Assembly (NCBI RefSeq): GCF_045037415.1
Contig: NZ_CP173438.1
Reading direction: 5' to 3' (one strand)
Length of the DNA stretch: 64,000 nt
From: Escherichia coli
GTDB taxonomy: Bacteria; Pseudomonadota; Gammaproteobacteria; Enterobacterales; Enterobacteriaceae
The notes under the pieces: generated by a model
Seen by the model: the letters and a program-made list of their open reading frames with translations, nothing else
Told to the model about the DNA's origin: nothing
Database searches by the model: none
Position numbers and translations under genes: made by a program
In this document: positions 995-23,157 of the stretch, in pieces
Position numbering within the stretch: the stretch's first letter is position 1
Layout: the number at the start of each line of letters is the position of its first letter

Positions 995-1330
995 ATGCCT
1001 CATAACCCAAATACTTGGCCGGACTGGCTGGAGTTGTTCCAGAGCTGGTGGCGTGGAGACACCCCGCTGGGGGCAGTGATTATGTCGATCGTTATGGCTG
1101 GTTTGCGTATCGCCTATTTTGGCGGAGGTGGTGGCTGGAAGCGAAAAACGCTCGAGATTTTGCTCTGTGGTGCTCTGACGCTGACTTTTGCATCCGCGCT
1201 TGAGTATGTCGGATGGCCTAAATCGCTTTCTGTTGCCATTGGTGGTGGCGTTGGGCTGATCGGTGTTGATGCCATTCGTGGAGCTGCAATGCGAGTAATC
1301 GGTAATAAGTTTAGTGGCTCTAAGGAGTAA
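995..1330 (+). CDS. Putative holin
   Basis: 111-aa hydrophobic, glycine-rich protein ending 3 nt before the endolysin start; no lambda S similarity recognised. Confidence 0.55.
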   Translation: MPHNPNTWPDWLELFQSWWRGDTPLGAVIMSIVMAGLRIAYFGGGGGWKRKTLEILLCGALTLTFASALEYVGWPKSLSVAIGGGVGLIGVDAIRGAAMRVIGNKFSGSKE

Positions 1331-1333
1331 TTT

Positions 1334-1810
1334 ATGCAGATACTAAATTCCCAGCGTAAAGCTTTCCTCGATATGGTGGCATGGTCAGAAGGAACGGATA
1401 ACGGACGGCAGAAAACCAGAAATCATGGTTATGACGTCATTGTAGGCGGAGAGCTATTTACTGATTACTCCGATCACCCTCGCAAACTTGTCACGCTAAA
1501 CCCCAAACTCAAATCAACAGCCGCCGGGCGTTATCAGCTTCTTTCACGCTGGTGGGATGCTTACCGTAAACAGCTTGGTTTGAAAGACTTCTCCCCCAAA
1601 AGCCAGGACGCAGTGGCATTGCAGCAGATTAAAGAGCGTGGCGCTTTACCGATGATTGATCGCGGTGATATTCGTCAGGCTATCGACCGTTGCAGCAATA
1701 TCTGGGCTTCACTGCCGGGGGCTGGTTACGGTCAGTTCGAGCATAAGGCTGACAGCCTGATTGCAAAATTTAAAGAAGCTGGCGGAACGGTCAGAGAGAT
1801 GGAGGCATGA
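1334..1810 (+). CDS. R: Endolysin, lambda R-type lytic transglycosylase
   Basis: 158-aa translation nearly collinear with remembered lambda R ([56 protein letters not shown]...). Confidence 0.9.
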
Positions 1811-2274
1811 GCAGAGTCACCGCGATTATCTCCGCTCTGGTTATCTGCATCATCGTCTGCCTGTCATGGTCTGTTAATCATTACCGTGACAACGCCATCA
1901 CCTATAAAGACCAGCGCGATAAAAAAGTTAGTGAGCTGCAGCTGGCGACCGCCACCATTACTGACATGCAGCAGCGCCAGCGTGATGCTGATGCACTTGA
2001 TGCTAAATACACGAAGGAGTTAGCTGATGCGAAAGCTGAAAATGATGCTCTTCGGCGCAAGCTTGATAATGGTGGTAGGGTGCTCGTCAAAGGCAGATGT
2101 CCAGTGCCAGCCACAACAAAAGCCTCCGGCACCGCCAGCGTGGGCAATGATGCCACCGTCGAACTCTCTCCAATTGCTGGACGAAACCTTCTCGGTATCA
2201 GATCCGGAATTATCAGAGATCAAGCATCATTGAGAGCGTTACAGGAATATATTGACACTCAGTGTCGGAAGTAA
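1807..2274 (+). CDS. Rz: Inner-membrane spanin Rz
   Basis: 155 aa; N-terminus [21 protein letters not shown] matches lambda Rz; 4-nt overlap with R. Confidence 0.85.
2027..2233 (+). CDS. Rz1: Outer-membrane lipoprotein spanin Rz1, embedded in Rz in another frame
   Basis: 68-aa ORF with MRKLKMML...VVGC lipobox and proline-rich stretch, like lambda Rz1. Confidence 0.7.
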
Positions 2275-2379
2275 ACTCTTTTGCTGGAATAAATAGTTAT
2301 TGCGAATAGGTGCTGCTAAATGTTGGTTGCTTGTGTAAAATATAGTGGTAAGGTGTCTTTTTTATAGTGGTAAGTACGC

Positions 2380-19158: not shown

Positions 19159-20203
19159 ATTTCAGCGCCCGACGCTGGCAGAAAATATCAGTATGCTCCG
19201 TAACGATTTATTCGCCAGGCTGGACGTCAGCGACACGCTCCGGCGCATGGATGAAGACGTGCGGGCAAAGGTGTATGCGGCGGCGCTGCATACGGTTTAT
19301 GGGTACATCGATTATCTGGCAATGAATATGCTGCCTGACCTGTGCGATGAGTCCTGGCTGGCACGACATGCTGCGATGAAACGGTGTCCGCGCAAGGGGG
19401 CCACGGCTGCCAGCGGGTATATGCGCTGGGAAGGTGTCAGCGATGGCCTGAAGGTGACTGCCGGGAGCGTGATTCAGCGCGATGACCTGGTTCAGTACAC
19501 GGCAACTGCCGATGCAACCAGCTCCGGTGGTGTCCTGCGTGCGCCGATCACTTGCTCAACTACAGGCGCGGTCGGTAACGCTGACGACGGTACGGCATTA
19601 ATCCTGGTCACGCCGGTGAATGGTCTGCCGTCTTCCGGTGTTGCAGATACCCTGACTGGCGGATTCGATACTGAAGATCTGGAAACGTGGCGCGCCCGCG
19701 TCATTGAGCGGTATTACTGGACGCCGCAGGGCGGGGCTGACGGGGACTATGTCGTCTGGGCTAAAGAAGTGCCCGGCATTACCCGCGCATGGACATACCG
19801 TCACTGGATGGGAACGGGAACTGTCGGTGTGATGATTGCCAGCAGTGACCTGATTAATCCCATTCCGGAAGAATCAACGGAAACGGCGGCAAGACAACAT
19901 ATCGGGCCACTGGCCCCGGTGGCAGGCTCTGATTTATATGTATTCAGGCCGGTGGCGCATAAAGTGGATTTTCATATCCGCGTGACGCCGGACACACCGG
20001 AAATACGGGCTGCCATCACCGCCGAGTTGCGTTCGTTCCTGCTGCGTGATGGTTATCCGCAGGGAGAACTGAAGGTGTCGCGTATCAGTGAAGCGATTTC
20101 CGGTGCGAACGGGGAATACAGCCATCAGTTGCTTGCACCGGCAGACAATATCTCCATTGCAAAAAATGAACTGGCGGTACTGGGGACGATTTCATGGACG
20201 TGA
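19145..20203 (+). CDS. Baseplate J-like protein
   Basis: 352 aa; position in the Mu-like baseplate order. Confidence 0.8.
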
Positions 20204-20778
20204 CAAACGATGATTACATCCGTCTGTTGTCGGCACTGTTGCCCCCCGGTCCGGCGTGGTCATCCAGCGATCCAGCGATTGCCGGTGCGGCACCGTCATT
20301 AACCCGCGTTCATCAGCGTGCGGATGCCCTGATGCGGGAGCTGGATCCGCGCACCACCACTGAACTGATAAACCGCTGGGAGCGTCTGTGCGGCCTGCCG
20401 GATGAATGTATTCCGGCGGGAACGCAGACCCTTCGCCAGCGTCAGCAACGGCTGGATGCGAAGGTTAATCTGGCGGGCGGCATCAATGAGGATTTTTACC
20501 TTGCACAGCTTGCTGCCCTGGGCAGACCAGACGCCACCATCACGCGATACGACAAAAGCACGTTCACCTGCTCATCGGCCTGTACTGACGCAGTGAATGC
20601 GACGGAATGGCGGTATTACTGGCAGGTCAACATGCCAGCCGCCACCAACACCACCTGGATGACATGTGGCGATCCCTGTGATTCCGCACTGCGTATCTGG
20701 GGCGATACCGTTGTCGAGTGCGTGCTTAACAAACTCTGCCCTTCGCATACCTACGTAATTTTCAAATATCCGGAGTAA
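20194..20778 (+). CDS. Tail protein (Mu gp48 / YmfQ-like)
   Basis: 194 aa; directly upstream of the tail fibre. Confidence 0.7.
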
Positions 20779-20781
20779 TCC

Positions 20782-23157
20782 ATGCATCGTATAGACACGA
20801 AAACCGCGCAGAAGGATAAGTTCGGCGCGGGTAAGAACGGTTTTACCCGTGGTAACCCCCAGACCGGCACGCCTGCCACCGATCTGGATGATGACTACTT
20901 TGACATGTTGCAGGAAGAACTTTGCAGCGTGGTGGAGGCCTCCGGTGCCAGTCTGGAGAAGGCGCGGCACGACCAGCTGCTTACCGCGCTTCGTGCGCTG
21001 CTGTTAAGCCGCAAAAATCCGTTTGGCGATATCAAATCGGATGGCACGGTAGAACGCGCTCTTGAAAATCTGGGGTTACAGGATGTAAAAGCTGGTTCAT
21101 TGAACAATCTGTACACTAACCATTCCCGTAGTGTCTTAATGGAATTGCCGTTATTATTCCCAGACTACGATACGGTGCTGGCTGCTCAGTCTGGTGCGGA
21201 ATATATGTATCCACAGGGATTTGTGGTGACAGGAGAAAAAATCTATCTGAGTTATACCGTTGAGCCAAAGCAGACACGGAACGTTATAGTTCAGTACACA
21301 ACATCCGGCGAATATGAGGGATATTATTATGTCGATAATGGAGGTCGTGGCGTTGTCAGCGAAGGCCTTGTGGTGACAACGGATTACGGTGGATTACGTT
21401 TGTTCATGTCAGGAGAAAATGGATTACTGAAACAGTTTTCGCTTGATGGGGCAATTTCTGGTTCAGTATTGCCGTTAATTGATGAACATGATGTCGGTGT
21501 TTACAACCAGTTCAGCTATCGTAAAAACCGCTGGGTGGTTGAACAGTCAGCGCCGGAAGTGGGAGGCCTGATCACCCGCACAGTATTTGCGGTGTATGAT
21601 TTTCAGTTTCGTCGGACAGGGACATTCACATTACCGTTGCATGATTCCGGATATATCACGGAAAGCACAGACAGCTATGCAAGACGCTTCACAAAACGTC
21701 AGGGAATTGCTGTGGGAGACGATTATATTGCCTGTTCTTATGGTGGCTATTTTAATACCGGGGCATCAGCCGGATTTAACCAGTTTCAGGGGGTTAAGGT
21801 CTTTTCTCCGGATGGAGTAAAGCAGCAGGAATCCATTCTTCATCCCCAAAAAATGATAGATGTGCTTACCAGGCAGGGTTTTACACCTTCGCGCATTGAG
21901 AACGAAGGAATTTGTATTTCTGACGACGGCGGCAGTATATATTCGCTTTATATCTTTCTGGAGCGTGGGTTACCACAGGCTTATCAGAAAGGAATTGTTC
22001 TGATGAAAGAGTTCAGTACTGGCAGAGATGCTATTGATTTTCGTCAGGCAGCCTGGTTGTACACGGGGTTTGATGTGTCTCATGCCAGTATTGGAACATT
22101 TCCCCGTAGTGCCCAGGGGTTGGTAAACCCGGTGTTGGGGACGGTATTCACATCCCTGTCTGAAATTCTGGCATATATGCGTTCTGTGAGTCAGAAATGG
22201 TTTTGTCTGCATACAACCACGACACCGATTAAAGATCTGAGTGGAAATGACATTCCTGCTGACAATTATGTGTTCATCAAGAATGCTAATAACCAGACAT
22301 TCTATATAACGCAGGAGTCAGCTGAAGGTGGAATAAAATATAAAGCTGTCACTACAGACAGCGGAGAATATGGTTTTCAGCGACAAAGAGAGGCAATCTG
22401 GTCCAATGTTATCACCATCGCACAAAAGAGCGATGGTGAGGATCAGTTTAATCGTATTATCGCTGCCTCGAAAAGTGGTTCAGGTAAAAATCAGGATAAA
22501 ATACTGGTAGTTGACCAACAGGCATCAGAGGGGAATAACACGCTGGTAATTGGCGGTGGTTCATCTGTGTTCAGGTCAGCGACAGTGATTGATTTTGCAA
22601 CGAATCAGGATGCAAATGCCACAGGAGGAGAAAAGAGATGGCGCATAGATTCATCAGGAAATCTCCGCCCTTATACAGATAATACGTATTCGATCGGTTA
22701 TGCCTCATGGCGACCCGCACAGGTTTATTCAGCTACGGGAAGTATCAGTACATCAGACCGGACTCATAAACAGGACGAAACAATTCTGTCGGATGCAGAA
22801 AAAAGGGTTGCCAGAAAGCTGCTCGGGTATATCTGTCGGTTCCGTTTCAGAGATGCAGTGTCCAGCAAAGGGAACGCAGCCAGATGGCATGTAGGAGTGA
22901 TTGCTCAGGACGTACAGAAGGTCTTCTCTGAGGAAGGGCTGGACGCTTTTGATTACGGTATTTTGTGTCGTGATGAATATCCGGCGGAATATGAAGTGGT
23001 TTACGGGACTCGTATGGAGCTTGGTCCTGACGGACTCCTTACAATGGAAGAATACGATACCGGAGAGCGCAAGCTGGTCAGGGAGGCTGGTGAAATAATG
23101 TCTGTAAGGAATGATGAGCTGCATTATTTCATGCTGGCATCGCTGTCTGGCCAGTGA
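20782..23157 (+). CDS. Tail fibre protein with C-terminal intramolecular chaperone (peptidase S74-like) domain
   Basis: 791 aa; AT-rich mosaic central part; C-terminal ~130 aa resembles the self-cleaving chaperone domain of fibres and tailspikes. Confidence 0.8.

Follow-up and report, generated by a model that had tools for sequence, protein, structure and literature searches.

The window analysed here is a stretch of 64,000 nucleotides of an Escherichia coli chromosome (contig NZ_CP173438.1 of assembly GCF_045037415.1). Our subject is the prophage arm at its left end and, above all, the last gene of that arm, which encodes a tail fibre (positions 20782-23157, a single intact open frame of 791 codons). 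The chromosome is of the sequence type 131 (ST131) kind: two substitutions and three single-base insertions separate the first 36 kb of the window from the O25b:H4-ST131 strain 4433 (NZ_CP103672.1). In strain 4433 the prophage begins at the serine tRNA gene serU, adjoining mtfA, and a Qin/Rac-like early region (dicB, dicC, ydaT, hokD, rem) follows the integrase and runs on into the window. The right end of the prophage is marked by one feature.

23885 to 23948, plus strand: attR, the right attachment site, a repeat of about 60 bp that duplicates the 3' end of the tRNA-Ser gene serU, defined by alignment with the intact serU at attL of strain 4433.

An initial annotation of this DNA had described positions 995-23157 as a mosaic prophage. 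The genes that it named are all in their places, but the interval is not a whole prophage, since the element continues to attR at about 23885-23948 and the window holds only its late half, the left part lying outside. Beyond attR come zinT and IS1397, followed by ordinary chromosome (msrQP, hprRS, dcm-vsr and the fli operons).

The fibre gene and the DNA immediately past it are divided as follows.

20782 to 21006, plus strand: fibre residues 1-75, an N-terminal adaptor of the SfV/StfP type and the presumed point of baseplate attachment (phrog_1396 and phrog_2617 match residues 1-104/141).
21007 to 21078, plus strand: fibre residues 76-99, a conserved linker that is the left recombination junction (SfV-family similarity stops at about 21075; similarity to strain C25 starts at 21007).
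21124 to 22056, plus strand: fibre residues ~115-425, a five-bladed beta-propeller, the putative receptor-binding and possibly catalytic head.
22069 to 22752, plus strand: fibre residues ~430-657, a small alpha/beta domain and a beta-rich stalk up to the cleavage site (secondary structure of the model).
22753 to 23157, plus strand: fibre residues 658-791 and the stop codon, a Peptidase_S74 intramolecular chaperone (Pfam PF13884 at residues 658-720, 38.6 bits against a cut-off of 22).
23165 to 23197, no strand assigned: a bidirectional hairpin terminator just past the fibre stop (terminator scan; stem of 11-13 bp on both strands).
23197 to 23376, plus strand: an open reading frame (ORF) of 59 residues that travels with the cassette (ORF list; no Pfam match).
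23500 to 23672, no strand assigned: the right junction of the cassette, where identity to C25 decays from 23508 and is gone by 23672.

The adaptor and the linker together (residues 1-99) form an N-terminus of the SfV/StfP type. The adaptor, which is shared with the SfV group of phages, is 71% identical to orf21 of SfV and to the short tail fibre of SfII, and its DNA is collinear with that of phage vB_EcoM-720R4. The initial annotation had suggested that the receptor-binding region was recently swapped, and the DNA comparisons bear this out more strongly than that annotation was able to show. Beyond about 21075 the DNA no longer resembles the SfV family, and the stretch from 21007 to about 23500, including the hairpin and the 59-residue ORF, shows only four mismatches (99.8% identity) to a cassette that stands behind another adaptor in the bovine strain C25. 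There the cassette lies in a different myovirus-type prophage (with DUF2612 and baseplate J genes, beside pphA) and is fused in frame to an unrelated N-terminus, giving an ORF of 807 residues. The linker at the left junction is common to both adaptor types. On the right, positions 23538-23644 are about 89-94% identical to the DNA 3' of the fibre genes of HK97, HK106, HK75 and phiP27, positions 23689-23889 share 95-97% identity with four lambdoid phages of E. coli (ev099, PhiR70_1 and mEp332 among them), and positions 23770-23889 match at 91% a part of phage SerU-LTIIb that is annotated as tRNA-Ser in its record. The GC content is 0.57 in the baseplate genes just upstream, 0.556 in the first 297 bases of the fibre gene and 0.46 in the rest of the gene. 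The drop that had been attributed to an AT-rich central part of the fibre is therefore present, but the low-GC stretch is not confined to the centre: it runs from about codon 100 to the stop and some 350 bp beyond. The 59-codon ORF at 23197-23376 has a hydrophobic N-terminus, and a good minus-strand terminator lies at 23347-23328.

Of 5426 complete E. coli genomes, 57 (about 1%) contain the propeller/S74 DNA, in every case at 99% identity or more. Because at least 80% of the whole region is present in 59 genomes, we conclude that the carriers have the cassette mostly in this same prophage. The carriers labelled with a clone are O25b:H4-ST131, and a few of the remainder come from animals. An ISEc52 element (about 1.25 kb) interrupts the fibre gene in at least two genomes (NZ_OZ546984.1 and NZ_CP107120.1). 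Fibre homologues at 35-63% identity carry N-termini of the P2/HP1, P22 head-binding or TSP1/gp66 types, and the T7-like Kayfunavirus genomes have homologues of 37-46% identity late in the genome, apparently where T7-like phages encode their tail fibre (the best-matching records are unannotated). The junctions, the C25 copy and the varied N-termini of the homologues indicate that the adaptor alone is tail-specific and that the unit that moves consists of head, stalk, chaperone and terminator.

In a library clustered at 50% identity, 283 representatives carry the conserved domain at residues ~115-511, which corresponds to no Pfam or NCBIfam family. Searches of solved structures with the whole fibre and with a profile of 111 homologues matched only the stalk and the S74 part and nothing in the propeller, and for this reason we turned to fold comparison. 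The structure model, built on the same 111 homologues, has a mean predicted local distance difference test (pLDDT) score of 89.5 and places 20 beta-strands in residues 115-410, followed by the small domain and the beta-rich stalk. The best fold matches of the head are the receptor-binding proteins of the Staphylococcus phages phi11, 80alpha, NF5 and P68, with the structural alignments to the phi11-type proteins showing 11-14% identity. Next after these phage proteins come five-bladed enzymes, namely glutaminyl cyclase and then hydrolases of glycoside hydrolase (GH) families GH43, GH32 and GH62. In a library of viral models the top match is the tail fibre of a Staphylococcus myovirus (template modelling (TM) score 0.68, 23% identity), and tblastn with the fibre directly finds Staphylococcus phage proteins at 25-30% identity with E values down to 2e-47.

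In fold, then, the head is closest to the five-bladed propeller "platform" of the phi11 Gp45-type proteins (phi11 Gp45, the 80alpha receptor-binding protein and the tail fibres of P68 and vB_SscM-1). The phi11 propeller has been proposed as a platform that binds N-acetylglucosamine, the glycan binding being modelled rather than shown (PMC4901313). In phi11 Gp45, unlike the fibre described here, a coiled-coil stem precedes the propeller, a "tower" follows it, and there is no S74 domain (PMC4901313). The Staphylococcus phage proteins differ also in what they face, which is Gram-positive hosts with teichoic-acid receptors. Neither a literature search nor a sequence search of solved structures gave a characterised coliphage homologue of the propeller; Dpo52 (PMC12873362) was considered as one and rejected, being an unrelated beta-helix spike of the P22 type. 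A prophage tail-fibre gene mentioned in a transposon screen of strain EC958 was also considered, but no link to this locus could be made. Across the 111 homologues (25-63% identity) residues Q145, E194, R266, K305, Q307, E373, E375, E410 and D419 are invariant or nearly so, and this set of conserved polar residues would fit either a binding pocket or an active site. On the evidence of the model and its fold matches, the "fibre" is better called a tailspike-like receptor-binding protein, the head of which is a five-bladed propeller.

The C-terminal part of the protein is easier to place. Residues 582-782 align with the stalk and chaperone of endosialidase NF (endoNF), T5 pb1, the GA-1 neck appendage and others, with E values of 1e-14 to 1e-17 for the S74 domain, and within this range residues 582-657 align with the stalks that precede the cleavage site in T5 pb1, the endosialidase and other spikes. 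The S74 domain can be aligned residue by residue with those of the GA-1 neck appendage (3gud) and T5 pb1 (4uw8), endoNF (3gw6) being a table-level match, and the serine and the lysine are kept: the motif S658-D-R-T-H-K663 has the Ser-to-Lys spacing of SDERHK at residue 1 of the released GA-1 domain (3gud). Cleavage is predicted from the sequence to occur before Ser658, with Lys663 as the catalytic partner, giving a mature subunit of 657 residues and a released fragment of 134 residues. Between the fibre and attR (23158-23885) we found no fibre-assembly gene, only short ORFs and patchwork lambdoid similarity. At the same position vB_EcoM-720R4 has a short fibre and two fibre-assembly genes, and Mu also has dedicated ones. 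The S74 match, together with the lack of such a gene up to attR, supports the earlier proposal that this fibre ends in its own chaperone in place of a separate assembly gene.

Two known systems invite comparison. The endosialidase tailspikes of K1 phages combine a propeller, a stalk and an S74 domain, and the fibre has the same layout of adaptor, propeller head, beta-stalk and C-terminal self-cleaving chaperone. The parallel between such propellers and endosialidases has been noted before (PMC4901313). The heads differ, however, in that the endosialidase has a six-bladed sialidase propeller and the head of the fibre is five-bladed and not a sialidase. No homology to the catalytic domain of endoNF was found, as the sequence matches in the PDB cover only residues 590-782 and Pfam and NCBIfam give no sialidase family, and the K1E spike is a poor fold match (TM 0.19). 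We rejected on these grounds the label "endo-N-acetylneuraminidase" that homologues bear in phage records; with only the stalk and chaperone matching endoNF, such labels were probably carried over from the S74 domain alone. The second system is the fibre system of phage Mu (S/S', U/U' and the invertible G segment), which occupies the same slot, directly after gp48 in a Mu-type baseplate operon. The fibre has no similarity to Mu S at E < 1e-3, and the prophage in the window, unlike Mu, has no separate chaperone, invertible segment or invertase.

The backbone into which the cassette is inserted belongs to the SfV family. The structural region of about 18 kb is 94.3% identical in DNA to SfV and 97% identical to SfII, SfIV, SfI and vB_EcoM-720R4. 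The matches of the SfV group cover 50-69% of the query in three to four collinear pieces and extend to the fibre adaptor from about 3470, or from the lysis genes onward in the case of vB_EcoM-720R4. In both the window and the SfV group a portal, protease and capsid of the HK97 family are joined to a tail operon in the Mu order. The structural genes of SfV have been described as coming from two phage families, with an HK97-like head and a Mu-like tail (Allison et al. 2002, 2003, as summarized in PMC4542187 and PMC3851460). The combination of HK97 head and Mu tail is therefore not new but the published SfV architecture. The initial annotation had read the region as a three-way mosaic of lambda-type lysis, HK97-type head and Mu-type tail, which the family assignments and the collinearity with Mu uphold. 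Any novelty of that mosaic is lost, as the identity of 94-97% to SfV-type phages comes close to the near-identity to a well-characterised phage that the annotation itself had named as removing it.

Several differences from the SfV group remain. The prophage in the window has no O-antigen glucosylation (gtr) cassette for serotype conversion at its attachment end: the 730 bp between the fibre stop and attR hold no ORF longer than 67 residues, no gtr cassette, and match only patchwork lambdoid non-coding DNA. It sits at serU, whereas the SfV-group phages of Shigella integrate at thrW. Its early region is Qin/Rac-like, it has extra low-GC genes (DUF2441), and the propeller/S74 cassette stands in place of the short fibre and assembly genes.

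We read the region as the late-gene arm of a temperate SfV-family myovirus prophage of about 40 kb at serU, the receptor-binding end of which was rebuilt in one event, and we give this reading a probability of about 0.85. Such a prophage unites lambdoid lysis genes, HNH-assisted packaging by a P27-type terminase, an HK97-type head and a Mu-type contractile tail. In a single recombination, a low-GC cassette of 2.5 kb (21007 to about 23500) would have been joined in frame to an SfV-type adaptor at the conserved linker and would have replaced the usual short fibre and fibre-assembly genes of the family. Residues 1-75 would attach the protein to the Mu-type baseplate beside gp48/YmfQ. The S74 domain (residues 658-791) would bring three chains together and fold the beta-stalk ahead of it, and would then cleave itself before Ser658 using Lys663. 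The mature subunit of 657 residues would remain, its five-bladed propeller binding, and perhaps processing, a polysaccharide on the surface of the target cell. With its chaperone built in, the cassette could move between unrelated tails by exchanging the short adaptor only.

The remaining genes of the arm begin with the lysis cassette and an inserted gene.

995 to 1330, plus strand: holin of the lambda S family, 111 residues (Pfam Phage_holin_3_1, E 2.6e-27; only 24% identical to lambda S).
1334 to 1810, plus strand: endolysin R, 158 residues (94% identical to lambda R across all 158 residues; RefSeq: glycoside hydrolase family 24).
1807 to 2274, plus strand: spanin Rz (Pfam Phage_lysis, E 1.8e-29; 63% identical to lambda Rz overall and nearly identical in the N-terminal half).
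2027 to 2233, plus strand: Rz1 lipoprotein embedded in Rz (49% identical to lambda Rz1; phrog_3198, "Rz-like spanin").
2380 to 2988, plus strand: DUF2441 protein, a low-GC (0.38) gene inserted between the lysis and packaging genes (Pfam DUF2441, phrog_9842).

The lysis genes stand in the lambda order S, R, Rz, Rz1, with Rz1 embedded as in lambda, and the DNA of this region is 91% identical to lambda over 703 bp. A VVGC near the N-terminus of Rz1 reads as a lipoprotein signal. With identities to lambda of 94% for R, 63% for Rz, 49% for Rz1 and 24% for S, the lysis cassette is itself a mosaic, and so the closeness to lambda that had been claimed for R and Rz/Rz1 applies to R and the first half of Rz but not to the rest. 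Between the late antiterminator region and the holin there is a 463-residue AAA_16/STAND-like ATPase, of which the window holds positions 1-898, cut by the window start (full gene in record L001, 11513-12904). Its position before the holin is typical of an inserted accessory gene, and its PADLOC matches are marginal only.

Packaging and head genes follow.

3060 to 3410, plus strand: HNH endonuclease adjoining the terminase (Pfam HNH, E 2.3e-16).
3536 to 4030, plus strand: terminase small subunit, P27 family (NCBIfam sm_term_P27).
4027 to 5760, plus strand: terminase large subunit (Pfam Terminase_4, TerL_ATPase and TerL_nuclease; 25% identical to HK97 gp2).
5908 to 7134, plus strand: HK97-type portal (NCBIfam equivalog portal_HK97).
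7127 to 7726, plus strand: prohead protease (NCBIfam equivalog proheadase_HK97).
7741 to 8958, plus strand: major capsid protein (NCBIfam equivalog major_cap_HK97).
9036 to 10983, plus strand: head-tail joining genes, comprising connector, head closure, neck, tail terminator and a DUF2635 protein like Mu gp38 (Pfam Phage_connect_1, Phage_HCP, Phage_tail_terminator and DUF2635; phrog_879).

The Pfam HNH match, the P27 terminase and the NCBIfam equivalogs for portal, protease and capsid bear out the HK97-like assignment of this block, including the HNH endonuclease beside the terminase. Identity to the HK97 proteins gp3 and gp5 is low (24-27%).

The contractile tail completes the operon up to the fibre.

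10967 to 12464, plus strand: tail sheath gene of the Mu L type, interrupted (one extra A at 11843 splits it into ORFs 10967-11938 and 11793-12464).
12464 to 15126, plus strand: tail tube (118 residues), tail assembly chaperone and tape measure protein (Pfam Tail_tube, Phage_TAC_7 and PhageMin_Tail).
15191 to 15679, plus strand: a low-GC (0.35) gene inside the tail operon, between the tape measure and the DNA-circularisation protein (phrog_5586).
15736 to 20778, plus strand: Mu-type baseplate, comprising the DNA-circularisation protein (gp43-like), gpP/gp44, gp45, gp46, gp47 and gp48/YmfQ (Pfam DNA_circ_N, GpP-like domains, Phage_Mu_Gp45, GP46, Baseplate_J and Phage_Mu_Gp48).

The order of these genes is that of Mu: DUF2635, sheath, 118-residue tube, chaperone, tape measure, DNA-circularisation protein, gpP, gp45, gp46, gp47, gp48. 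In blastp comparisons the tail is collinear with Mu gp38-gp48 at 29-43% identity (42% for the DUF2635 protein and gp38; 29-43% for the baseplate proteins and gp43-gp48), which, together with the Pfam families, confirms the Mu-like tail of the initial annotation. The phrog_5586 gene at 15191-15679 is also present in vB_EcoM-720R4 and has no Pfam, NCBIfam or PADLOC match. For the low-GC inserted genes (DUF2441 and phrog_5586) and the AAA_16 ATPase, the PADLOC, Pfam and NCBIfam scans gave no assignment to a defence system.

The insertion at 11843 in the sheath gene was located with the ORF list and a base-by-base comparison with strain 4433. The intact version, of 498 residues, matches the sheath domains of Pfam, and its identity to Mu gp39 is 36%. 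The same insertion occurs in just one of 985 E. coli records, that of strain A1.S1.126, and that strain additionally has a frameshifted gp46. The structural genes of the window other than the sheath are all intact. The frameshift is either a real defect or an assembly error, and an assembly error is at least as likely because the attR repeat has an extra T and the A-run of IS1397 an extra A.

Four observations weigh against the reading of an SfV-family prophage with a rebuilt receptor-binding end. The structure model is that of a monomer. The profile of the 111-member family reached no phi11, 80alpha or P68 chain in the PDB at E < 0.01; phi11 Gp45 is thus undetectable by sequence profile, and the link to it is one of fold. 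The prophage copy in the window may not make particles, as its sheath gene carries a frameshift and the integrase of the near-identical strain 4433 is annotated as frameshifted. Finally, the RefSeq annotation, made by the Prokaryotic Genome Annotation Pipeline (PGAP), splits the fibre ORF into an incomplete "stfP pseudogene" and a shorter coding sequence. Taken at face value, the split would mean that the ORF is a non-functional fusion, in which an stfP remnant reads through into an unrelated gene, and PGAP did label the first ~100 codons as the incomplete pseudogene, with a separate coding sequence downstream, in all three records inspected. (The downstream sequence is called "tail fiber domain-containing protein" and has 326 or 672 residues; the records are L001, 32787-35162; L005, 5635-8058; and L008, 23469-25844.) We consider such a fusion very improbable, since the frame is open through all 791 codons, the join falls exactly at the conserved linker motif, C25 has the cassette joined in frame again to another adaptor in its 807-residue ORF, the 791-residue protein is on record with 365 member sequences, and the homologues always have some N-terminal adaptor. 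A defective copy, with no contractile tail and perhaps no excision, would make the element cryptic and its fibre currently unused. The sheath frameshift at 11843 would be accompanied, on that account, by the gp46 frameshift of strain A1.S1.126, which has the same sheath insertion, by the integrase of strain 4433, annotated as frameshifted, and by the ISEc52 insertions in the fibre gene of some genomes. The sheath insertion is, however, private to one of the 985 records; compared with strain 4433 the window has two more single-base insertions, of which one lies in an A-run, and such a pattern is typical of long-read assembly errors; the remaining structural genes are intact; and the close relative vB_EcoM-720R4 was deposited as a phage genome in a phage collection. 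Defectiveness of this copy is accordingly possible but doubtful.

A different question is whether the propeller head is a passive lectin or a glycan-modifying enzyme (a polysaccharide depolymerase or a deacetylase, for example), in which case the protein would be a true tailspike cleaving O-antigen or capsule. The near-invariance of a charged and polar set (E194, R266, K305, Q307, E373, E375, E410 and D419) in the 111 homologues speaks for catalysis, as do the five-bladed enzymes that follow the phage proteins among the fold matches and the arrangement of propeller, stalk and S74 domain, which copies that of the endosialidase tailspikes. No glycoside-hydrolase or esterase family is matched in Pfam or NCBIfam, however, the closest structural relatives (phi11, 80alpha and P68) are described as binding proteins, and the conserved residues may equally line a binding pocket. 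An enzymatic head is in our view a plausible alternative, although not the one that we would expect. It is also conceivable, though we think it unlikely, that the head belongs to a large family of phage receptor-binding modules (the 283 representatives, from Staphylococcus phages and from enterobacterial podoviruses, myoviruses and prophages) whose invariant Glu, Lys, Gln, Arg and Asp residues mark a new class of enzymes processing surface glycans and not a lectin. If this were true, a prophage spike would be spreading among unrelated tails, and its specificity would be the one defined by the ST131-associated copy.

Some further observations concern the ends of the prophage and the neighbouring chromosome. 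In strain 4433 the prophage integrase annotated as frameshifted lies beside serU (record L004, 14194-15244, outside the window), and just past it there is a yersiniabactin island at the neighbouring tRNA-Asn. Compared with the intact serU (L004, 14077-14166), the attR copy has two mutually compensating changes in the stem of the variable arm (GTGGGGGCAACTCCAC versus GTAGGGGCAACTCTAC); the extra T of the window relative to strain 4433 is at 23889, within the attR repeat. In IS1397 (ORF 25520-26878) the A-run at the programmed-frameshift site, at window position 26001, has eight A rather than seven, which fuses the two transposase frames into an ORF of 452 residues; either the extra A is an assembly error or the transposase is constitutively fused. 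At about 56000-59300 of the window (record L009, 20054-23325) a low-GC islet between fliE and yedF holds emrE, ybcL and ybcM (in K-12 these belong to the DLP12 prophage), together with an IS200/IS605 transposase and two genes that are truncated.

As a whole, the prophage is one more SfV-type element with an architecture that was described two decades ago, and the fibre is its sole unusual part. The gene also flags a systematic annotation error, in which RefSeq gives a pseudogene and a fragment for an intact gene and phage records label its homologues as endosialidases. Once the receptor is known, the cassette may be of practical interest for the engineering of phages or tailocins against the ST131 clone. 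Coliphages, too, use the kind of five-bladed propeller that Staphylococcus phages have in their receptor-binding proteins, and the fibre offers a clean, datable example of host range moving between phages, with head, built-in chaperone and terminator travelling as one unit of 2.5 kb and only an adaptor of about 75 residues being exchanged, at a conserved linker.

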